DNA from: Bacteroidales bacterium
GTDB lineage: Bacteria; Bacteroidota; Bacteroidia; Bacteroidales; GCA-2748055
Length of the DNA: 64,000 bases
Assembly: GCA_021738565.1 (NCBI GenBank)
Contig: JAIPBT010000020.1
Span: forward strand, 1,692 to 65,691
Direction of reading: 5' to 3'
A model generated the notes under the pieces. It made no database searches. It had not been told where the DNA came from and was given only the letters and a program-made list of their open reading frames with translations. The position numbers and the translations under genes are program-made. Shown here in pieces: positions 5,054-57,553 of this stretch (its first letter is position 1; every line of letters begins with the position of its first letter).

Positions 5054-6424
5054 ATGCAAGCAATTATGAAAAGCTACAGGATAATTTTAATGATGGTATT
5101 GATTGCGGTTATCGCATATGGCTGCAGGGATCCTGAACCAGATGAAACGGAAATACTCAACGAATGGATTTGGGACGTGATGAATGACGTTTACCTTTGG
5201 TCGGAGGATATTGATCCAAGTCTTTACCCTACAAATGAAACGGATCCTGAGGCGTTTTTTTACAGTATTTTGTCTGATAATGACCGGTTTTCCTGGATCG
5301 TGGATGATTACCAGGCACTGCTGAACAGTTTTAACAACATTGAACTTTCTTCCGGTATTTCGCCTTACTTCATCAGAGCAGGAGAAACAGACCAGGTCGT
5401 CGTCATTGTGGAATATGTATCGAAAGGTTCACCTGCAGAAAGTGCAGGAATAATGCGTGGGGATATAATTGTAGAGATAAACGGTACAATGCTCACCATT
5501 GACAATTATGTTGACCTTTTTTACAATGAAAGCCTGACGCTGGAATTTGCTGATTTTACCGATTCCGGTATCACTGCCAATGGAAAGTCAGTAAGTATAA
5601 CTGCCAAAGTGATAGAACAAAATCCAGTGATCTACAGTGATGTTATTGATTTCCATGATCAGAAAATTGGTTACATAGTTTACACTGGTTTCAGTCTCGG
5701 AGAGGGAAATAAATGGCAGGATTCACTGGATTATATCTTTGCAGATTTTCAGAACAGCGGAATCACAGATCTTATCATGGATATCCGCTACAACCCCGGG
5801 GGAAGGGTATCTGTGGCAACACATATTGCATCCACGATCAGCCCTTCGGATATCCCTGGCAGTGAGAATGTTTTTGTAAATTACGAATGGAACAGCGCCT
5901 ATAACGAATACTTTTTGAACGAAGAAGGAGAAAACTCGGAAAACCTTGTGGTTCTTTTCGAGGATGATCCTTATATTAACTTCGATCTTGATAACATATA
6001 TTTCCTTACTTCACCTCACTCTGCTTCAGCTTCAGAACTAATTATTATTGGTCTGCAACCATATATGAACGTGGTTCAAATCGGGGAATACACGTACGGA
6101 AAATGTTATGGTTCAATCACAATACCGGATATAGAAGATCCACCCAGGCACAACTGGGCAATGCAACCCATTGTGTTTAAATTTGCCAATGCAGATGGTT
6201 TTACAGATTTTAATGATGGACTCGTTCCTTCAATCTATATTGATGATAACCTTTTAATTGCCAAACAATTTGGAGATATTACAGATCCGATCGTGGCCCG
6301 TGCACTTGAAGAGATTACCGGTGTTTCACCCGTTTCTAAAAAAGCTTTATCAAGACGCACTTCAATCGGCTATGAATTGCTTCCAGATCCTGTAAGGGAT
6401 ATGAAGAGCAGTGCTATTAAATAG
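5054..6424 (+). CDS. S41 family peptidase lipoprotein with PDZ domain
   Basis: Lipobox AYGC, PDZ-like GSPAESAGIMRGDIIVEING, and S41 motifs YNPGGRVS and TSPHSASASELII. Confidence 0.75.
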   Translation: MQAIMKSYRIILMMVLIAVIAYGCRDPEPDETEILNEWIWDVMNDVYLWSEDIDPSLYPTNETDPEAFFYSILSDNDRFSWIVDDYQALLNSFNNIELSSGISPYFIRAGETDQVVVIVEYVSKGSPAESAGIMRGDIIVEINGTMLTIDNYVDLFYNESLTLEFADFTDSGITANGKSVSITAKVIEQNPVIYSDVIDFHDQKIGYIVYTGFSLGEGNKWQDSLDYIFADFQNSGITDLIMDIRYNPGGRVSVATHIASTISPSDIPGSENVFVNYEWNSAYNEYFLNEEGENSENLVVLFEDDPYINFDLDNIYFLTSPHSASASELIIIGLQPYMNVVQIGEYTYGKCYGSITIPDIEDPPRHNWAMQPIVFKFANADGFTDFNDGLVPSIYIDDNLLIAKQFGDITDPIVARALEEITGVSPVSKKALSRRTSIGYELLPDPVRDMKSSAIK

Positions 6425-6475
6425 AGTCTGTCAATAAAGTTGCAGTGGCTGATAAACAGTGTCAGCACCAGTGCC
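6425..6475. repeat. Family-1 element fragment or minimal copy D
   Basis: GTCTGTCAATAAAGTTGCAGTGGCTGAT matches the left 30 bp of copies B and C. It fills the whole gap between the convergent S41 and pyrD stop codons. Confidence 0.45.
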
Positions 6476-7519
6476 TCAGGATTTGTATCTTTTTAACAAG
6501 GCTTTGTTGATCCTTCGAACAAATCCGGGACCGTTGTAAATGAAACCTGTGTAAACCTGGATCAAATCTGCTCCGGCATTCAGCATATTCATTGCATCAA
6601 CAGCCGACATGATGCCTCCTACCCCAATGATGGGCATCTCCCCGTTTGTTTTCGTATGGATGTACCTGACAACTTCAAGACTCCTTGAAGTCAATGGTTC
6701 ACCGCTCATGCCTCCGTTTCCTATTTCATGAATCAAATCATCACTTGTTTTTAATCCCTCCCTTGTAATCGTTGTATTTGTAGCAACAACACCATCGATT
6801 CCATATTTTCTTATGATATCCAGCGAAGCATCGATCTGCTTGTTATTCAGATCGGGAGATATCTTTAACAGAATTGGAATGTAATGATCCTGCTTGTTGC
6901 GTATCGAAGATAGTCGGCCCAGTATCTTTTCCAATCCATCCTGGTCCTGCAATTCATGCAGGTTGGATATATTTGGACAGCTTACATTGACAACAAAATA
7001 ATCAACATATTCATATAAGGCCCTGAAACAAAATTCATAATCAGAAACTGCATCTGCATTTGCAGTATCCGTATTCTTGCCAATGTTTCCGCCAATGACA
7101 AGTCCTTTCCCGCGCATTTTTTTCAGTGCATCTGCAAGTGCCTCAACCCCGTGATTGTTAAATCCCATTCGATTGATCAATCCCTTGTCATCCGTTATTC
7201 GAAAGCTCCGTGGCTTTGGATTTCCTGGTTGTGGCCAGGGAGTCACAGTTCCAACCTCAATATGGGAAAAACCAAAATTGAAAAATTCATTGTAGGCCTC
7301 TGCATTTTTATCAAAACCCGCGGCCAGACCAACAGGATTTAAAAATTTCATTCCCAGGAACTCCAGCTCCAGCAAAGGATCACTTACATGGTAATATTTT
7401 CGCAAAATAATGGCTATACCAGGTATCTTAAAAGCAATTTTAACTACCAATAAAACAGCATTGTGGACATTTTCAGGAGAGAAGAAGAAAAGTAAAGGTC
7501 TGATTAAATACCTGTACAT
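6476..7519 (-). CDS. pyrD: quinone-dependent dihydroorotate dehydrogenase (class 2)
   Basis: 347 aa with an N-terminal membrane helix and motifs GFNNHG, NVSCPN and IGVGGI. Confidence 0.9.
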   Translation of the reverse strand: MYRYLIRPLLFFFSPENVHNAVLLVVKIAFKIPGIAIILRKYYHVSDPLLELEFLGMKFLNPVGLAAGFDKNAEAYNEFFNFGFSHIEVGTVTPWPQPGNPKPRSFRITDDKGLINRMGFNNHGVEALADALKKMRGKGLVIGGNIGKNTDTANADAVSDYEFCFRALYEYVDYFVVNVSCPNISNLHELQDQDGLEKILGRLSSIRNKQDHYIPILLKISPDLNNKQIDASLDIIRKYGIDGVVATNTTITREGLKTSDDLIHEIGNGGMSGEPLTSRSLEVVRYIHTKTNGEMPIIGVGGIMSAVDAMNMLNAGADLIQVYTGFIYNGPGFVRRINKALLKRYKS

Positions 7520-13182: not shown

Positions 13183-13234
13183 CCCGAATTATACATTATT
13201 CTTTCGTAACAGATCAATTCGTGAATATTTCAGG
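13183..13234. mobile_element. Family-2 MITE-like element, minimal 52-bp copy F
   Basis: Ends CCCGAATTATACAT ... CGTGAATATTTCAGG are inverted repeats, and TTAA flanks both sides. The right 30 nt are nearly identical to 52706-52737. Confidence 0.55.
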
Positions 13235-13339
13235 TTAAAAACTTATATGATGTAAATCATATTTATTCCTTATGTTACTTAAATAAAAATACCTAATTTT
13301 AGTTTTTCAATTTCATTTAATTTAAATATCTGATATTCA

Positions 13340-14350
13340 ATGGATTTATTAAAATCAATTCGTACAAAGGCCAGTCAGGATTGTCAGAGGATCGTGCTTC
13401 CTGAAGGTGATGAAGAAAGAACCATACTGGCAGCACACCAGGTAATAAGCGAAAAACTTGCTCACGTGATCCTCCTGGGCGATCCGAAAAAAATTGGATT
13501 CCTGGTCGAAAAATACGGCTTGCACGATATTAGCAAAGCACAGGTCATTGACCCCAATGATCATAAAAAGAAAAAAGAGTATGCCGATCTGCTTCTTGAG
13601 ATCAGGAAATCCAAGGGTATGACCAGGGAGAATGCCATGAAACTTGTAACAGATCCCCTCTATCTGGGCACATTGATGATAAAAGCCGGTGATGCTGATG
13701 GTGAAGTTGCCGGAGCAAGGAACGCCACAATCGATGTTTTACGGCCTGCTTTTCAAGTTGTAAAAACGATGCCAGGTATAAGCGTTGTGTCCGGTGCATT
13801 TATTATGATATTGAAGGACAAGGAATTCGGAGAAGATGGTATTCTTGTTTTTTCTGATGGAGCAGTTCACCCTGACCCCACGGAAAATGAGCTTGCAGAA
13901 ATTGCGGTTGCTACAGCAAAAACAGTAAGGCATATTCTGGGATTTGAGCCGAGGATTGCAATGTGCAGTTTCTCCACGAAAGGCAGCGCAAAACATCCCC
14001 TTGTTGATAAAGTGGTCAATGCCACAAAACTGGCAAAGGAAATTGATCCGAGTCTTATTATAGATGGTGAACTTCAGATTGATGCTGCCCTGATCAAGGA
14101 GATCGGAGAAAGCAAAGCCCCGGGAAGTCCGATTGCAGGCATTGCCAATGTTTTGATCTTTCCTGACTTAAATTCCGGTAATATCGGATACAAACTGGTT
14201 CAGCGATTGGCGCATGCCGAAGCAATAGGACCTGTTCTTCAGGGAATGGCCGCTCCTATAAATGACCTTTCAAGGGGTTGTTCGGTCAGTGACATTGTAA
14301 ATCTGGTAGCAATAACAGCCAACCAGGCCATTGGTATGAAAAACAATTAA
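13340..14350 (+). CDS. pta: phosphate acetyltransferase
   Basis: 336-aa PTA_PTB domain with motifs SFSTKGS, DGELQIDAAL and NVLIFPDLNSGNIGYK. Confidence 0.9.
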   Translation: MDLLKSIRTKASQDCQRIVLPEGDEERTILAAHQVISEKLAHVILLGDPKKIGFLVEKYGLHDISKAQVIDPNDHKKKKEYADLLLEIRKSKGMTRENAMKLVTDPLYLGTLMIKAGDADGEVAGARNATIDVLRPAFQVVKTMPGISVVSGAFIMILKDKEFGEDGILVFSDGAVHPDPTENELAEIAVATAKTVRHILGFEPRIAMCSFSTKGSAKHPLVDKVVNATKLAKEIDPSLIIDGELQIDAALIKEIGESKAPGSPIAGIANVLIFPDLNSGNIGYKLVQRLAHAEAIGPVLQGMAAPINDLSRGCSVSDIVNLVAITANQAIGMKNN

Positions 14351-14365
14351 ATAGCATAATTCAAA

Positions 14366-15574
14366 ATGATAATACTCGTCTTAAACTGCGGATCTTCCTC
14401 TGTAAAATACCAGTTATTTGAGATAAATGAAGAGACCGCAGTATTAGCCAAAGGAATTGTTGAAAAGGTTGGTTTTAATGATGCCATTATTATACACAAA
14501 CCTGCAGACAAAGAAAAACATACCGAAGAAACTGCAATACCCGACCATACAATTGCAATTAACAAAGTTTTTCAGCTTCTTACCCATAAGGATTACGGTG
14601 TAATCAGCGATGTGAAGAAAATTGCTGCTGTAGGACACAGGGTTGTGCAGGGTGGTGAAGCCTACAAGGAAAGCGTTCTGATCACCAAGGATATTATCAG
14701 GGACATTGAAAAGAATATTGACCTTGCCCCTTTGCATAATCCTGCCAATCTAAAAGGTATATTATCGGTCGATAACCTGCTTCCAGGGGTTCCTCAGGTG
14801 GCAGTTTTTGATACATCTTTTCACCAGACAATGCCGCCACATGCATATATGTACGCAATCCCGCGTGAATTTTATACAAAATACAAGATACGTAAATACG
14901 GTTACCACGGAACAAGTCATAAATACGTATCACGTCAGGCAAGCAAAGTCATAGGAAAAGATACACGGGAATTGAAGATGGTTACATGTCATCTTGGCAA
15001 CGGAGCATCCATTGCGGCAGTTGAATATGGAAAATCCATTGATACTTCAATGGGATTCACACCTGTTGACGGACTTATCATGGGAACAAGGACCGGTGAC
15101 ATTGATCCGGGTGTATTATTGTATCTTGCGGATAAAGAACATCTCAGTTTGAAAGGGATCAGCAATATCATCAATAAGAACAGCGGAATGAAGGGTATTT
15201 CAGGAATTTCAAGTGACATGCGGGACCTGGAACTGGCCTATTATGAGGGCAATGAAAAGGCGGCCCTTGCGCTTACAATGTATGCCTATAGGGTTAAAAA
15301 ATTTATCGGCGCCTATGCAGCGATAATGAACGGCCTGGATGCATTGATCTTCACGGGAGGCGTGGGTGAGAATGATTTCAACATCCGCAGGATGATCTGT
15401 CAGAATATGGAATACCTGGGAATCATGTTCGATGAAGTTGCCAACCATGGAATCAAGGGACAGGACCGAATCATTTCAAAACCGGATTCAAAAGTGACTG
15501 CTGCCGTTGTAAAGACAAATGAAGAGCTGCTTATAGCATCGGATTCATATAAGATTGTTGAAAAATGTGTTTAA
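14366..15574 (+). CDS. ackA: acetate kinase
   Basis: Motifs ILVLNCGSSSVKYQLF, YGYHGTSH and TGGVGEN. Confidence 0.95.
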   Translation: MIILVLNCGSSSVKYQLFEINEETAVLAKGIVEKVGFNDAIIIHKPADKEKHTEETAIPDHTIAINKVFQLLTHKDYGVISDVKKIAAVGHRVVQGGEAYKESVLITKDIIRDIEKNIDLAPLHNPANLKGILSVDNLLPGVPQVAVFDTSFHQTMPPHAYMYAIPREFYTKYKIRKYGYHGTSHKYVSRQASKVIGKDTRELKMVTCHLGNGASIAAVEYGKSIDTSMGFTPVDGLIMGTRTGDIDPGVLLYLADKEHLSLKGISNIINKNSGMKGISGISSDMRDLELAYYEGNEKAALALTMYAYRVKKFIGAYAAIMNGLDALIFTGGVGENDFNIRRMICQNMEYLGIMFDEVANHGIKGQDRIISKPDSKVTAAVVKTNEELLIASDSYKIVEKCV

Positions 15575-15643
15575 TATCATGGCACAGATGTAGCAGATGA
15601 AGGTAGCTTTTCTGTTTATTTGACCTATTAATACAGTACGACC

Positions 15644-16546
15644 ATGTTAAAGAAACTGGATGAACTCAGGCAGTTTTTACCCAAGACCGCCAAACCCATC
15701 AGATTGGTGTTAGCCGCTTCCCATGATGCACATTCCATAGGTGCAGTTGTCAGGGCAGCAGAGGAAGGAGTGATAGAGCCCCTGTTTGTTGGTGACAAGG
15801 AAAAAACAGTAGGACTCGCCGATGTGATGCAACTGAGCCTTAAGAAATTTCAGTTTATAGATGAGCAAGACGCTGAACAGGCTGTTATAAAAGCTGTAAA
15901 ATTAATTCATGAAAAAAAGGCCGAAGTGCTTATGAAGGGTAAGATCGGTACTTCTATTATGTTGAAAGCAGTCCTTAATAAGGAATACGGATTGAGAACC
16001 GGAAAACTGCTCTCGCATTTTGCCTTGTTTGAGGTAGAAACGTATCACAAACTTATCGGTGTAACTGATGTGGCTATGAACATTGCGCCTAATCTCGATG
16101 AAAAGATCGCCATACTGAATAATGCCGTCGGTATATTCAATAAGCTCAATATCCAGGAACCTAAAGTTGCAGTACTCGGCGCGGTCGAACAGGTAAATAC
16201 CAGCATGAATGCAACACTTGATGCAGCACTTTTATCGAAAATGAACCAGCGTGGACAGATCCGTAATTGTCTCATTGACGGTCCCCTTGCTTTCGATAAT
16301 GCAATCAGTGCAGAAAGTGCAAGACACAAGGAAATAAAAAGTGAAGTCGCCGGTGATACGGATCTTTTACTCATGCCGGATATTGAAGTTGGCAATGTGC
16401 TTTATAAATCATTGGTTTTCTTTGCAAAAGCCAAAGTTGCATCGATGATCGTCGGAGCTACAGTACCCATAGTATTGACTTCCCGGTCCGACTCAGAACA
16501 GGCCAAATTTGATTCAATACTGCTTGCTGCCGCCAGCGCCAGTTAA
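15644..16546 (+). CDS. ptb: phosphate butyryltransferase
   Basis: 300-aa PTA_PTB family protein directly upstream of butyrate kinase. Confidence 0.8.
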   Translation: MLKKLDELRQFLPKTAKPIRLVLAASHDAHSIGAVVRAAEEGVIEPLFVGDKEKTVGLADVMQLSLKKFQFIDEQDAEQAVIKAVKLIHEKKAEVLMKGKIGTSIMLKAVLNKEYGLRTGKLLSHFALFEVETYHKLIGVTDVAMNIAPNLDEKIAILNNAVGIFNKLNIQEPKVAVLGAVEQVNTSMNATLDAALLSKMNQRGQIRNCLIDGPLAFDNAISAESARHKEIKSEVAGDTDLLLMPDIEVGNVLYKSLVFFAKAKVASMIVGATVPIVLTSRSDSEQAKFDSILLAAASAS

Positions 16547-16651
16547 TAATCACATAAAGAGAATTCAATTACTGATCGAATAATGTATATTTATAATTTA
16601 ATATTATTATTTTGCTCTTAATTTATTATTTTTAATATTATTGTAATTATA

Positions 16652-17767
16652 ATGGAAATAAGTTATATATTGGTCATTAATCCTGGTTCAACTTCCACCA
16701 AAATTGCGGTATACAGGGGCAACAATTCTGTATTTCTGAAGACCATTCGTCATGAAGCGAGTGAATTGGCAAAATTTCAGGAAATAACAGACCAGTTTGA
16801 ATTCAGGAAAGAATTAATTCTCAAAGAGGTCCTGGAAAATCATATTCCGCTGGATGAAATACGCATTGTCATTGGAAGGGGCGGTCTGATCAAACCCATC
16901 GTATCAGGTGTCTACGAAGTAAATGAAGAGATGATAAATGACTTGAGAAAAGGGACACTGGGCAAACACGCGAGCAACTTGGGAGGATTGATTGCTGCTG
17001 ACCTCTGCAAAGAACTTTCCGGGGCCAAACCATATATTGCCGATCCGGTAGTCGTGGATGAATTGAATGATGTGGCCAGGATTACCGGACACCCTGAAAT
17101 CAGACGCATATCCATTTTTCATGCCCTGAACCAGAAAGCCACTGCAAGAACCTATGCCCAATCGTGCGGAATGAGTTACGATGATCTGAACCTGATCATT
17201 GCGCATCTTGGTGGAGGAATCTCTGTTGGGGCTCATAAGAAAGGAAGGGTAATCGATGTCAACAATGCCCTTGACGGTGACGGTCCTTTCAGTCCTGAGC
17301 GCTCAGGCTCCCTGCCTGTTGGTGCGCTGGTGGATTATTGTTACAACAACAAGGTGACACACGACCAAATCAAGTCAATGATTAACGGGAAAGGCGGTTT
17401 AACTGCGTATACAGGATCCAATGACGCACATAAACTCGAAATAAACGCCCGCAGAGGCGATAAGAAGGCAAAACTGCTCCAGAAGGCAATGGGGTACCAG
17501 ATAAGCAAAGAAATTGGTGCTATGGCCGCGGTTCTCGCCGGTGAAGTCCATGCAATAATCCTTACAGGGGGTATTGCACACAATCCTGATCTTACAGGAT
17601 ACATAAAAGAACACATTGCATACATTGCACCTGTTTTTATATATCCCGGGGAAGACGAAATGCGGGCACTTGCCATGAATGGACTCCTGCTGCTTAAGGA
17701 TTCGGTACAGGCAAAAAAATACAACAGGGATAATTTCGTTGAAGGATTTTCCCTGGATAATTTGTAA
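16652..17767 (+). CDS. buk: butyrate kinase
   Basis: Motifs ILVINPGSTSTKIAVY, IAHLGGGISVGAH and LTGGIAHN. Confidence 0.9.
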   Translation: MEISYILVINPGSTSTKIAVYRGNNSVFLKTIRHEASELAKFQEITDQFEFRKELILKEVLENHIPLDEIRIVIGRGGLIKPIVSGVYEVNEEMINDLRKGTLGKHASNLGGLIAADLCKELSGAKPYIADPVVVDELNDVARITGHPEIRRISIFHALNQKATARTYAQSCGMSYDDLNLIIAHLGGGISVGAHKKGRVIDVNNALDGDGPFSPERSGSLPVGALVDYCYNNKVTHDQIKSMINGKGGLTAYTGSNDAHKLEINARRGDKKAKLLQKAMGYQISKEIGAMAAVLAGEVHAIILTGGIAHNPDLTGYIKEHIAYIAPVFIYPGEDEMRALAMNGLLLLKDSVQAKKYNRDNFVEGFSLDNL

Positions 17768-26722: not shown

Positions 26723-28039
26723 ATGAATAAAGAATATGCAATAGCACTCTTTCTAATTACCATGCTGATGGGCAGCTGCAGAGAAAGCAATTTCTATATT
26801 GATGAAATTGATGTGGTTACAGATCTTGGAGGTGGTACGGGATCTGTCACATGGACCAGCGATAAAAGCTATCTTATCAGCGGATTTGTTTTTGTGAATG
26901 ACGGACAGACGCTCACCATTGAACCCGGTACCGTGATCAGGGCAAAGACAGGACAGGGTTCCCTCTCCAGCGCCCTTATTGTTGCAAGAGGGGGAAGGAT
27001 TATTGCAGAAGGCAACAATACTGAGCCTATTATCTTTACTGCTGAAGGAGATGATCTCAAAGGCAGTGTTCCCAAGGAAGCAAGAGGATTGTGGGGTGGT
27101 CTTATCATCCTTGGAAATGCACCTGTCAACACCGAATCGGGTGAAGCGATGATTGAAGGAATACCTGTCAGTGAACCAAGGGGTGTATTCGGAGGAATTG
27201 ATGAAGACGATAATTCAGGGATATTGAGGTATGTATCGATAAGACACGGAGGCACAAACATTGGAGAGGGGAATGAAATAAATGGACTCACCCTTGGCGG
27301 AGTGGGACGTCAGACCATTATTGATCATATCGAAGTAATTTCAAATGAAGATGATGGTCTGGAAATTTTTGGAGGAACAGTAAACCTCAGGAATATTGTG
27401 ATCTCCAATTGTGATGACGATGCATTTGATATTGACCTGGGCTACAGGGGCAAATGCCAGTTCCTGCTGGGATTGAACAATGAAAATTCCGATCGAGGTA
27501 TTGAGTGTTCAGGAGGCCTGCAGCTCCTGCAGATCCTGCCTGATGCTTTTCCATCCTTATATAATGTGACCCTCATCGGAGATCAGGAGAACCTGCTCAT
27601 ACCTGCTATAGACTTTACAAGTTATGGCGCTGCTCACATCAAGAACTCCATATTCGTTCATACCGGATCCGGAATTGCAATCTTGCATTCTGAATCAACC
27701 GGGGATGTCTATTCAATGTTCAGGAATGGATCTCTGACCATAGAAAATTGTATATTTTTCGACGAATCACATTCAACAATAAAAATTTTTTGTTACAATG
27801 AACTCAACGATCACTTTTATGCTGAAAATGCTGAGTTGCAGGACTCAATTCAAAGCTGGGGAAATCTCACCGGGAATCCACTGAATGCACAAGGCACAGC
27901 TTTTCAATTAATGCCCGACAACACCGTTTTTGAAAACATGGCCCCTTATAACAGCAACTGGTTTGAAAAAGTCACTTATAAAGGAGCTTTCGGCTCTGAA
28001 AACTGGATTGAGGGCTGGACATTGCTGTGCGTTAATTAG
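26723..28039 (+). CDS. hypothetical lipoprotein with beta-helix-like repeats
   Basis: Lipobox LMGSC and repeats GGLIILGNAP, YVSIRHGG, LTLGGVG, DDGLEIFGG and DDAFDIDLGY. The ATG immediately follows the porin TAA. Confidence 0.5.
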   Translation: MNKEYAIALFLITMLMGSCRESNFYIDEIDVVTDLGGGTGSVTWTSDKSYLISGFVFVNDGQTLTIEPGTVIRAKTGQGSLSSALIVARGGRIIAEGNNTEPIIFTAEGDDLKGSVPKEARGLWGGLIILGNAPVNTESGEAMIEGIPVSEPRGVFGGIDEDDNSGILRYVSIRHGGTNIGEGNEINGLTLGGVGRQTIIDHIEVISNEDDGLEIFGGTVNLRNIVISNCDDDAFDIDLGYRGKCQFLLGLNNENSDRGIECSGGLQLLQILPDAFPSLYNVTLIGDQENLLIPAIDFTSYGAAHIKNSIFVHTGSGIAILHSESTGDVYSMFRNGSLTIENCIFFDESHSTIKIFCYNELNDHFYAENAELQDSIQSWGNLTGNPLNAQGTAFQLMPDNTVFENMAPYNSNWFEKVTYKGAFGSENWIEGWTLLCVN

Positions 28040-28183
28040 TGCTTGTCAATAAAGTTGGGGTGGCTGGATCATAATGTTCGTTTGCAAGTCCTGCGAAGTT
28101 GGGAAATGCGGAGTCCCGATATATTATCGGGATGAGCAATTTACCGACGAGCGTAACGCAGCAAACGGACATTATGGACAGAC
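28040..28183. mobile_element. Family-1 palindromic MITE-like element, copy B
   Basis: Inverted ends CTTGTCAATAAAG / CATTATGGACAGAC, inner stems, and a flanking 7-bp direct repeat TAATTAG (28033-28039 and 28184-28190). Confidence 0.7.
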
Positions 28184-28186
28184 TAA

Positions 28187-29695
28187 TTAGGGCTTGTTGT
28201 GCGCCGGCCTTATCAGGTCGAATATGGTCTTTACCGGAGTAAATGTATCGGAAGAAATCTCAGCAAAAATTGTTATCCACCCTGCCATCGAACCGTTCCA
28301 TAACCCTGGTAATTCAAGGGCTTTCAAATCTTTTCCCTTCACTGATTTAATTGAAATAAAACCTGTATCGTGATCTACATAATCCGACAGATTATAACTC
28401 CGTCCATTTTGTCTTTTGATACTGCAGACCAAATCCACCGGGTTAAAATGACTGGATCGACGGAACAAATTTAACTGATGCTCATTGTACTGATCTACCT
28501 GTGAAGGTTCTACGATCTGCAGGGAGACCTCCCCTTCCCGGTTCTTTGTAAAGAACGGTCCCCCACCCGGTTCTCCCTCATTTTTCACCATACCACATAC
28601 CCTTAAGGGCCTGTCCAGTTTTTGTGTCACCCACTGTCGCTTATGATCATCGGGCCATGAATTATAATCATTTGGGATATCAACATACGCCTTATTTTTC
28701 AGCCAGTCAATTGCCTTATCAAAAAAATGATTCCCTTCAGGTTTGGCTATCTCCTGCATTAACTCGTTAACATCTGATCGCGCCTTCAACAGGATACCAC
28801 CCAGCATTTTCTTATTAAGTATCCTGTTATCGCTGTTTCGATCAGGTGAAATGTTATCAATGTTGTTAATAAAAATAATATCACTGTTGAGATCGTTTAA
28901 ATTTTCAAGTAATGCTCCATGTCCCCCGGGACGAAATACGATCTTCCCATCCTCATCACGAAATGGCCTGTTCTTAAGATCCACTGCTATGGTATCTGTT
29001 TTGCGCTTTTGAAAAGAATAGGTTATATCAAATTGCACCTGGTAGGCATTTTCAAGTGCAGGAACAACAGCTTTTTCCAATGACCTGAAATCATCAAAAT
29101 GTTCCTCTGAAACAGTAAAATGAAGCTTTACTCTGTCACCTTCACCTATCAACCTGGCCGCTTCATGCAAGTGCTCCTCGAAAGCAGTCCTGCTGATATC
29201 GCCATAATCATGGAAACTGATCAATCCCTTTGGCAGCGCTCCATAATTTAACCCCTTGTTTCCAAGTATCATATCCAGTATTTTATCTGGCGGCTCATTG
29301 CCCTCCAATCCAAGTTCCCTGTAAAATGGATATTTATTGAGACTGTTAAAGAAATCATTTATCAAGGGATTTGAGGCTATATGGTTTATTTGATCCTGCC
29401 TGGTCCTCCCTACAAGCTCCTCCCTTTTTTCGTACAATGATTTAAACATTCTTGTTGCAGCACCTGATGCCGGCACAAACCTGCATATATCGTGCTCTTC
29501 TTTTCGCTTATCAAAATAAACTGCCAGTTCACCTTTTTCATCTTCATTGTATGCAGCAATTCCGCTGTCTATTGAAGCGGGCCCGACTAATTCAGTGAAG
29601 GGAAATCCTTCCTTGAATCTCTTAAGCTGTCTTTCGGTGATTTCAGGTTCAGCGCCATAATCTCTAATCTGTCTTTTATCTTTAGTAGTTAACAT
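28187..29695 (-). CDS. DUF4301-like protein with UDPGP-type nucleotidyltransferase-like motifs
   Basis: 502 aa, with size and N-terminus matching my recollection of DUF4301. Motifs PASGAATRMFK, RPGGHGALLENL and IFINNIDN. Confidence 0.55.
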   Translation of the reverse strand: MLTTKDKRQIRDYGAEPEITERQLKRFKEGFPFTELVGPASIDSGIAAYNEDEKGELAVYFDKRKEEHDICRFVPASGAATRMFKSLYEKREELVGRTRQDQINHIASNPLINDFFNSLNKYPFYRELGLEGNEPPDKILDMILGNKGLNYGALPKGLISFHDYGDISRTAFEEHLHEAARLIGEGDRVKLHFTVSEEHFDDFRSLEKAVVPALENAYQVQFDITYSFQKRKTDTIAVDLKNRPFRDEDGKIVFRPGGHGALLENLNDLNSDIIFINNIDNISPDRNSDNRILNKKMLGGILLKARSDVNELMQEIAKPEGNHFFDKAIDWLKNKAYVDIPNDYNSWPDDHKRQWVTQKLDRPLRVCGMVKNEGEPGGGPFFTKNREGEVSLQIVEPSQVDQYNEHQLNLFRRSSHFNPVDLVCSIKRQNGRSYNLSDYVDHDTGFISIKSVKGKDLKALELPGLWNGSMAGWITIFAEISSDTFTPVKTIFDLIRPAHNKP

Positions 29696-52562: not shown

Positions 52563-52737
52563 CCTGAATTATTCATGAGTTTTTCGTGATGAGAATTCAG
52601 AGCGCCAAGCGTTAAGGGAAGCGCAAACTTTCGGCTCGCAGGAATAGCCTTAGTTATTTCGAGAACCGAAAGTTGAGCATTCTCTTTAATCGCAGGCGAT
52701 ATGGATTCGTAACAGATCAATTCGTGAATAATTCAGG
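52563..52737. mobile_element. Family-2 palindromic MITE-like element, 175-bp copy E, inside the efflux operon
   Basis: Inverted ends CCTGAATTATTCATGAGTT / AATTCGTGAATAATTCAGG, inner stem AACTTTCGG / CCGAAAGTT, and CTAA on both flanks (52559-52562 and 52738-52741). Confidence 0.7.
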
Positions 52738-52742
52738 CTAAA

Positions 52743-57240: not shown

Positions 57241-57376
57241 TTGACAATTTTGTTATACGAAAATGTTTGACATTATTGTTTAACTATTTCGTAAAAATAC
57301 ACAATAGGTCGATATCTGTCAAGTTTTTTAAGAATATATTAAAATATTTATCATTACTTTTATGGCATTCTATTTA

Positions 57377-57523
57377 GTACTTGTCAATAAAGTTGGAGTG
57401 GCTGGATCATAAAGTTTGAGAGCAAAGCGCGCAAAAATCTTAAACCGCAGTATCCGCCGACGGACGGATTTGAGGATTTAAGATTTTTGCAGCAATGCAG
57501 CTATCGGACTTTATGGACAGACA
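57377..57523. mobile_element. Family-1 palindromic MITE-like element, copy C (different inner module)
   Basis: Same outer ends as copy B, a flanking 7-bp direct repeat CTATTTA (57370-57376 and 57524-57530), and an inner perfect 14-bp stem GCAAAAATCTTAAA / TTTAAGATTTTTGC. Confidence 0.7.
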
Positions 57524-57553
57524 CTATTTACACACTCGTCAAAGTATTCACAG

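Follow-up and report, generated by a model that had tools for sequence, protein, structure and literature searches.

The 64,000-nt stretch analysed here (the window; from contig JAIPBT010000020.1 of an uncultured Bacteroidales bacterium, all positions being window coordinates) holds at 28039-28183 a 145-bp element that is very probably a non-autonomous DNA transposon, i.e., a MITE (miniature inverted-repeat transposable element), inserted where the stop codons of two genes overlapped tail to tail, with a target-site duplication (TSD) that preserved both stops. A MITE-like element had been proposed at this place in an earlier sequence-only reading, and the family to which it belongs bears this out: its members are small and non-coding, have conserved terminal inverted repeats (TIRs) and a TSD that differs between copies, and occur in many copies with truncated and nested derivatives. 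The same reading had described a non-coding, imperfect palindrome of 144 bp at 28040-28183; the palindrome and its non-coding nature stand, while the start moves to 28039 and the length to 145 bp.

The heptamer TAATTAG is present twice at the locus, at 28033-28039 and at 28184-28190, and the locus reads ...TGCGT TAATTA G-TGCTTGTCAATAAAG...CATTATGGACAGAC TAATTA GGGC.... The open reading frame (ORF) on the plus strand has its TAG stop (28037-28039) in the left heptamer, and the ORF on the minus strand has its TAA stop, read as TTA at 28187-28189, in the right one (Table 1), so that both flanking genes indeed stop within the repeats. The target was very probably the TAATTA in ...GCGT-TAATTA-GGGC..., where the TAG stop of a lipoprotein-like gene and the TAA stop of a DUF4301 gene overlapped by 2 nt. 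Copying of this 6-bp target on insertion, together with the initial G of the element, left each gene a stop codon and an unchanged C-terminus, and it is for this reason that both genes still end normally. That the duplication kept both frames terminated, as had been claimed, agrees with the stops in both heptamers and with the DUF4301 C-terminus, which has its native length in comparison with homologs.

Two relatives (L125, GCA_018400695.1, and L126) keep the gene order POR - DUF4301 - convergent beta-helix lipoprotein - porin-like gene and have no spacer between the convergent genes. In L125, whose lipoprotein is 69% identical, the overlap of the genes amounts to 4 nt, and in the junction ...ATA CTT TAG TCA... 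the DUF4301 stop TTA and the TAG are both contained in TTAG; in L126 the junction ...CTT TAA ACA... holds TTA and TAA within TTAA. Removal of the element and of one hexamer from the window sequence leaves GCGT-TAATTA-GGGC, with TTA and TAG in TTAG and an architecture as in both relatives. The predicted pre-insertion site GTTAATTAGGGC, with its tail-to-tail overlap, accordingly has a counterpart in a matching gene pair with overlapping stops, and it is identical under a 6-bp or a 7-bp duplication. An empty allele of the locus would read across GCGTTAATTAGGGC.

Relatives without the spacer also speak against a native bidirectional terminator or spacer of the locus that never involved an insertion. 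A strong hairpin does lie exactly between two convergent stops, but its sequence recurs in other genomes and at loci unrelated to this one, neither strand has a T-run after the stem, and a terminator scan of 27700-28500 on both strands gave 0 sites; we attach almost no probability to this explanation. As a separate observation, the lipoprotein-like protein ends in ...TLLCVN* in the window (28022-28039), in ...TLLRESGIL* in L125 (4509-4540) and in ...TLLYESGIL* in L126 (4006-4040). Its tail is three codons shorter than in the two relatives directly before the insertion site, which need not relate to the insertion.

The duplicated hexamer

TAWWTA stands before and after almost every copy of the family. 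Left and right hexamers are the same in 51 of 94 non-redundant two-ended copies, against a mean of 14.8 (standard deviation 3.1, maximum 28) in 5000 permutations. Within clusters of copies that are at least 93% identical the hexamer changes from copy to copy and agrees within a copy: 12 of 14 pairs match in one such cluster, including TAAGTA/TAAGTA and TATTTC/TATTTC, and 9 of 10 in another, including TATATA and TACTTA. The asymmetric hexamers TATTTA and TAAATA form direct repeats in 20 cases and inverted repeats in 0, so the hexamer is not an element-borne extension of the TIR, which predicts the opposite. Neighbouring tandem copies have a single hexamer between them. Identity at the seventh base is at chance level (23-24 of 51), with a G at position +7 in 33 of 91 copies.

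These family-wide statistics show that the family duplicates 6 bp of a preferred TAWWTA target. Of the 7-bp duplication TAATTAG that was first described, the two heptamers are there, whereas the true TSD is the hexamer TAATTA; the G at 28039 is the first base of the element and the G at 28190 matches it by chance. A weaker preference extends into the flanks, for H at -7 and for D at +7, and its symmetry is expected of a palindromic target. The earlier reading had conceded that a flank conserved among copies would belong to the element. The flank does follow the TAWWTA consensus in nearly all copies, but near-identical copies have different hexamers, the two hexamers of one copy agree, and the repeat is direct and not inverted; by this comparison the hexamer is a preferred target and not part of the element.

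The same comparison bears on a possible derivation from IS630/Tc1-mariner elements, under which only TA would be duplicated, the TIR would extend to TAG...CTA, and the longer identity would be coincidental in AT-rich DNA. In agreement with this derivation, TA is nearly invariant beside both ends, and the sequence TAGTG...CACTA forms an inverted repeat of its own. Yet the central two bases of the hexamer and its rare outer bases co-vary between left and right (TAAGTA/TAAGTA, TATTTC/TATTTC, TACTTA/TACTTA) and differ between near-identical copies, the asymmetric hexamers are exclusively direct, and the outer TA of the hexamers would be left unexplained. The co-variation rules out a duplication of TA only, and we consider an IS630-type origin very unlikely.

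ORFs were called on both sides of 55 copies; 18 of these copies have convergent and 8 divergent neighbours, and 11 are co-directional with respect to their top strand and 18 opposite, which is no orientation bias relative to neighbouring genes. Of the 65 gene 3' ends adjacent to copies, 22 have a stop codon that falls within the hexamer or consists of the TA|G made up by the hexamer and the element-terminal G/C. The window has four stops in a hexamer or junction (6422-6424, 1389-1391, 28037-28039 and 28187-28189); TAWWTA occurs 123 times in it, and 38 of these occurrences touch non-coding bases, which make up 10% of all bases. Copies would gather at gene 3' ends because TAWWTA contains or completes stop codons and because intragenic insertions would be purged by selection; we infer that target availability and purifying selection explain the gene-end pattern. 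At the locus studied here, the inserted element would add a stable ~145-nt hairpin to the 3' ends of both convergent transcripts, which may impede read-through or stabilise the mRNAs.

Ends and hairpin of the element

At the left end of the family a ~20-nt motif is present twice in direct orientation, as LE1 (GWGTCTGTCNATAAAGTC) and LE2 (AGTGTCTGATTCATAATGTTCG), and at the right end once, inverted, as CGGACATTATGGACAGACAC. All three ~20-nt end motifs are presumed to be transposase binding sites. The right end is invariant over ~20 nt in an alignment of 47 copies, which were chosen by that 20-mer. The family TIR reads GWGTCTGTCNATAA... on the left and ...TTATGGACAGACAC on the right. Termini in inverted repeat had been reported for the window copy, and they are present in imperfect form, CTTGTCAATAAAG and CATTATGGACAGAC agreeing at ~9 of 12 positions by eye. 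The reported 15-bp inner stem was recovered as 16 nt (28070-28085 / 28161-28176) with 94% complementarity, and the central stem-loop was located at 28114-28132.

On the plus strand the 158-nt stretch folds with -63.1 kcal/mol (z = -7.5, 0 of 200 shuffles as good), on the minus strand with -42.6 kcal/mol (z = -4.7). For the 47 aligned copies RNAalifold predicts 26 pairs, 16 of which show compensatory double changes; 96% of the cells pair in the consensus structure, and the covariation score is 0.41, against 0.14 in shuffled alignments and at most 0.12 with slid partners. In 47 of 47 copies the fold of the top strand exceeds that of its complement in stability (mean -51.2 vs -39.4 kcal/mol), an advantage that is seen in the variable interior alone in 42 of 47 and that holds for 12 of 12 clusters of differing interior sequence. 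Two U-G pairs in the stem of LE2 and right end are invariant or nearly so (47 of 47 and 44 of 47 copies), and at the variable pairs there are ~31 G-U cells vs ~9 A-C cells, although the copies are related and cell counts are not independent events. Among unpaired bases the short motifs CAAGGC, GGAGT, ATGA and TAACGCAG are conserved. The pattern hints at a constraint on one single strand, RNA or DNA.

Such a constraint would be in line with structured non-coding RNA genes or a cis-acting RNA element, in which selection acts on the RNA and mobility is secondary or historical. Compensatory pairing well above the shuffled level, a better-folding top strand in every copy and every cluster, the excess of G-U over A-C cells and the conserved unpaired motifs all agree with this explanation, the weight of the cell counts being reduced by the relatedness of the copies. 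On the other hand, Rfam 15 had 0 matches in the window at gathering threshold and nothing relevant at E <= 1 in the related loci L011 and L023, the copies have no orientation bias relative to genes, and neither a promoter-like nor a terminator-like signature is evident at the element. TSDs, tandem arrays, truncated copies and empty orthologous sites show that mobility places the copies. We regard an RNA-based explanation as unlikely.

A broader possibility, which we also consider doubtful, is that the family represents a mobile structured-RNA module under strand-specific selection, or a REPIN-like long-lived population with a single-copy domesticated transposase. It is suggested by the compensatory changes across 12 interior modules, the always more stable top strand and the conserved unpaired motifs, and the selected form of the hairpin could then be structured RNA or single-stranded DNA. 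If true, hairpins would have been seeded at gene 3' ends across an order of Bacteroidota.

Family spread and mobilisation

The exact 20-nt right end CGGACWTTATGGACAGACAC is found in at least 120 metagenome stretches or contigs, and the modal length of the copies is 141-143 bp, with no ORF (94 copies). By contrast, the left-end variant of the window, searched as the pattern TGTCAATAAAGTTGNNGTGGCTG (21 specified bases), is rare: it has one true genome match, in a Prolixibacteraceae metagenome-assembled genome (MAG) with two family copies (L001), and no match in metagenomes. A further match, L002, lies inside a gene of an Anaerolineae MAG and is a chance hit. Judged from these matches, the right end, not the left-end variant of the window, is the widely conserved part of the family. 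Copies sit among housekeeping genes of Bacteroidota type (type IX secretion system sorting domains, metK, fabF, rpoD), and the host proteins are deeply diverged (MetK 68%, FabF 71% identical), yet the 20-nt right ends are identical. It is a family of wide occurrence among Bacteroidota that are related to Prolixibacteraceae and other Bacteroidales. The interiors can be grouped in at least 12 sequence modules, a nested 53-nt insert being present in some, and solo right ends or truncated copies likewise adjoin housekeeping genes. Literature searches aimed at a TAATTA target or at 6-bp duplications made by a Bacteroidota MITE gave no relevant result, and the family is apparently undescribed.

Several derivatives deserve mention in their own right. 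In variants of 193-196 nt (L028, L039, L041, L050, L068, L091) the interior stem harbours a ~53-nt insert, CCGAACGAAGTGAGCTCTTGAACACCTTTAAAAATAATTAACGTTGTGAAAAA, that occurs in both orientations; this points to a smaller second module, mobile or recombining, that is nested within the element. Right ends of a separate class, preceded by ...ACCTTAAAAATATAAAAAAGGTATGAGTAAATCGGAC..., occur in L009/L042, L010/L013, L025 and L102 and belong to longer structures without ORFs, of 326 bp in L009/L042 and, as a 577-bp composite of partial copies, in L010/L013. Head-to-tail tandem pairs sharing one TAWWTA are seen in L120 (10214-10501), L072 (9180-9592) and L063 (~7099-7265), and at the tandem junction right end, hexamer and left end together make a near-perfect palindrome, its 14-nt arms enclosing a 6-bp spacer. 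The copy in L058 is flanked on the left like that in L057 (ttcgccTACTTA) and on the right like that in L011 (TAAATAgcataa), which reflects either recombination between two element copies or a chimeric metagenome assembly.

Within the window, BLASTN, nhmmer and the family profile recovered all the related copies that had been listed at 1185-1388, 57377-57523 and 6425-6475, for a total of 3 copies and 1 fragment in 64 kb, all in plus orientation and at unrelated loci. Their flanks, which had been called unrelated, are of the same hexamer type: TATTTA/TATTTA, TAAATA and TACTTA/TAACTA. The composite copy combines the first 7 nt of a left end (from 1185) with an internal fragment in inverted orientation (~1229-1271) and with a copy truncated at its 5' end (1254-1389) that is 91% identical to 28071-28183; the TAG stop of the adjacent minus-strand gene is its C|TA at 1389-1391. 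At the left-end fragment beginning at 6424, the TAG stop of the upstream plus-strand gene (6422-6424) is composed of the TA of the hexamer and the G of the element. The second complete copy (57377-57524) occupies the divergent promoter region between a TetR gene, whose start (57240) is 137 nt away, and an M28 peptidase gene, upstream of whose start (57554) it lies by 30 nt, and from this placement the peptidase gene is transcribed either through the element or from a promoter inside it.

No transposase had been noticed in the window, and a domain scan of its ORFs (almost all of those of at least 200 aa) found no transposase or integrase domain either. The search for an autonomous copy covered the loci fetched by the right-end pattern (L004-L123) and plasmid and viral collections; blastn against plasmids gave no match, nor did the scan of viral contigs. 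The sole pair of left and right ends 0.5-6 kb apart that encloses ORFs has htrA and rpoD inside and hence represents two separate copies, and the end pairs 577 bp apart in L010 and L013 are the ORF-less composites mentioned above. ORFs recurring near copies or beside solo right ends are housekeeping genes only. We envisage mobilisation in trans by a DDE-type transposase that would make 6-bp staggered cuts and bind the repeated end motifs (two at the left end, a single one at the right), a class of enzyme suggested by the 6-bp duplication and the multiple end motifs. Insertion sequence (IS) families with 5-6-bp duplications, e.g., IS481 with its target NCTAGN, are candidate sources of such a transposase. 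Passages of one source also place the IS1202 family among those making 5-6-bp duplications (PMC10132070). The IS481 and IS1202 families resemble the present one in a ~6-bp duplication and a sequence-specific, partly palindromic target, but their target consensus differs from TAWWTA and no transposase gene bounded by the ends described here was found.

Several observations weigh against a MITE placed by insertion at a double stop. The window copy terminates in ...GGACAGAC and so is missing the final AC of the consensus right end. Hexamers are non-identical in 43 of the 94 copies, for which decay, recombination among copies or mistakes in calling the ends would account. The relatives with an empty site are only ~60-69% identical in protein and do not provide an empty site at the nucleotide level. 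Compensatory conservation of the hairpin and the constant strand bias exceed the needs of a passive MITE. Finally, the search of the window, the 120 metagenome loci and the plasmid and viral collections yielded neither an autonomous element nor a transposase with these ends.

Table 1. Positions of the element, its parts, its flanking genes and the further copies in the window.
Feature	Position	Strand	Remarks
Lipoprotein-like gene	26723-28039	+	438 aa; stop codon straddles the junction of hexamer and element
Left TSD copy TAATTA	28033-28038	.	final 2 bases plus first G of the element form the TAG stop of the plus-strand gene
MITE	28039-28183	+	145 bp, non-coding, long imperfect hairpin; top strand is the plus strand of the window
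Outer left end motif LE1, GTGCTTGTCAATAAAGTTGG	28039-28058	+	first of two direct ~20-nt motif copies; family consensus GWGTCTGTCNATAAAGTC
Inner left end motif LE2, GGTGGCTGGATCATAATGTTCG	28059-28080	+	hairpin arm pairing with the right end
Apical stem-loop, TCCCGATA-tat-TATCGGGA	28114-28132	+	
Right end motif, CGGACATTATGGACAGAC	28166-28183	+	family consensus runs on with AC, absent here
Right TSD copy TAATTA	28184-28189	.	28187-28189 (TTA) is the TAA stop of the minus-strand gene
DUF4301 gene	28187-29695	-	502 aa; C-terminus of native length compared with homologs
Second complete copy	57371-57530 with hexamers	+	element 57377-57524, 148 bp, different interior module, TATTTA on both sides
Composite copy	1179-1395 with flanks	+	element 1185-1389; flanks TACTTA and TAACTA
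Left-end fragment	6418-6475 with hexamer	+	element part 6424-~6475, TAAATA before it

Ordinary housekeeping genes make up the ORFs of the window, among them a his operon, pta-ackA, POR, peptidases and an ABC exporter. An ortholog of the 438-aa lipoprotein-like protein carries the beta-helix domain PF28492, and a look-up of the exact 438-aa sequence returned no record. The DUF4301 protein of the window is 100% identical to one in an NCBI MAG that bears the label 'Bacteroidales bacterium'. The sole other contig encoding it is L003, from the Logan assembly of SRR12088348, and it breaks off within the element, as is expected for a repeat; the nearest further homolog is 61% identical. Elsewhere in the window a 37-nt motif, TTCGTAACAGATCAATTCGTGAATAWTTCAGGYTAAA, is repeated with 95% identity in two unrelated intergenic regions (13203-13239 and 52706-52742), one copy lying upstream of pta-ackA in a divergent region and the other within the ABC-exporter gene cluster. 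Both copies have TAAAAATACCT in common ~45 nt downstream, and the motif may represent a site bound by a regulator or a further small family of repeats. Two phosphotransacylase/kinase gene pairs adjoin each other at 13340-17764, namely pta-ackA followed by a shorter PTA_PTB protein and an acetate-kinase-family protein; the second pair is probably ptb-buk and would be part of ordinary fermentative metabolism.

Relation to known repeats and significance

Long hairpins in intergenic regions, often between convergent genes, with strand asymmetry and long-term maintenance of the hairpin, are likewise features of repetitive extragenic palindromes (REPs) and REPINs, and the element might accordingly be a palindrome spread by a REP-associated tyrosine transposase (RAYT, an IS200/IS605-like Y1 transposase) or belong to a palindrome-associated element of IS200/IS605 type. 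The latter insert 3' of a fixed tetra- or pentanucleotide without duplication and have subterminal hairpins in place of inverted repeats. In the present family the hexamer stands on both sides as a direct repeat, unlike a duplication-free insertion, and no Y1 transposase was seen near the copies. REPs, in the passages of PMC3733652 that describe them, are 20-40 nt long with a GTAG or CGTC head and have neither TIRs nor a target duplication. The window family, with its 145 bp, ~20-nt terminal repeats and 6-bp TSD, departs from them in size, in the head and in possessing both TIRs and a TSD, and we think it highly improbable that it arose in either of these ways.

A parallel to a MITE of this kind is offered by the Correia/NEMIS elements of Neisseria, which are non-coding MITEs of ~100-160 bp with TIRs, occur in many copies that are mostly intergenic and near gene ends, and duplicate TA; they fold into a long hairpin when transcribed, and their target duplication can overlap gene signals. 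Size, TIRs, copy number, gene-end placement, hairpin and a TSD overlapping gene signals are thus common to both. The present family differs in a 6-bp TAWWTA duplication instead of TA, in an unrelated sequence, in the host phylum and in its asymmetric ends with two left motif copies and one right, and it is not known to carry an integration host factor (IHF) site or an outward promoter. ERIC/IRU elements of Enterobacteria and Yersinia are imperfect palindromes of ~127 bp in transcribed intergenic regions, with proposed RNA-level effects on the flanking mRNAs. Sequence, host and target set them apart from the window family, for which a 6-bp TSD is statistically shown and no orientation-dependent association with genes is seen. 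We know of no link between the BrickBuilt/MITEPgRS elements of Porphyromonas gingivalis, another Bacteroidota MITE, and the ends of the window family. BrickBuilt/MITEPgRS is described as containing a minisatellite (PMC4596501), and it is by this description that the two are distinguished here.

The family does not change current concepts of bacterial MITEs. Its definition by ends, a length of 141-143 bp, a TAWWTA target and modular interiors aids annotation and explains contig breaks such as that of L003, and its points of interest are the clean stop-preserving insertion, the size and breadth of the family and the strand-biased, covarying hairpin. When its target looks like two stop codons placed back to back, a transposon can enter the very ends of genes without harming them, because the duplication regenerates a stop on both sides, and about one third of the gene 3' ends beside copies have their stop within the hexamer or the junction.

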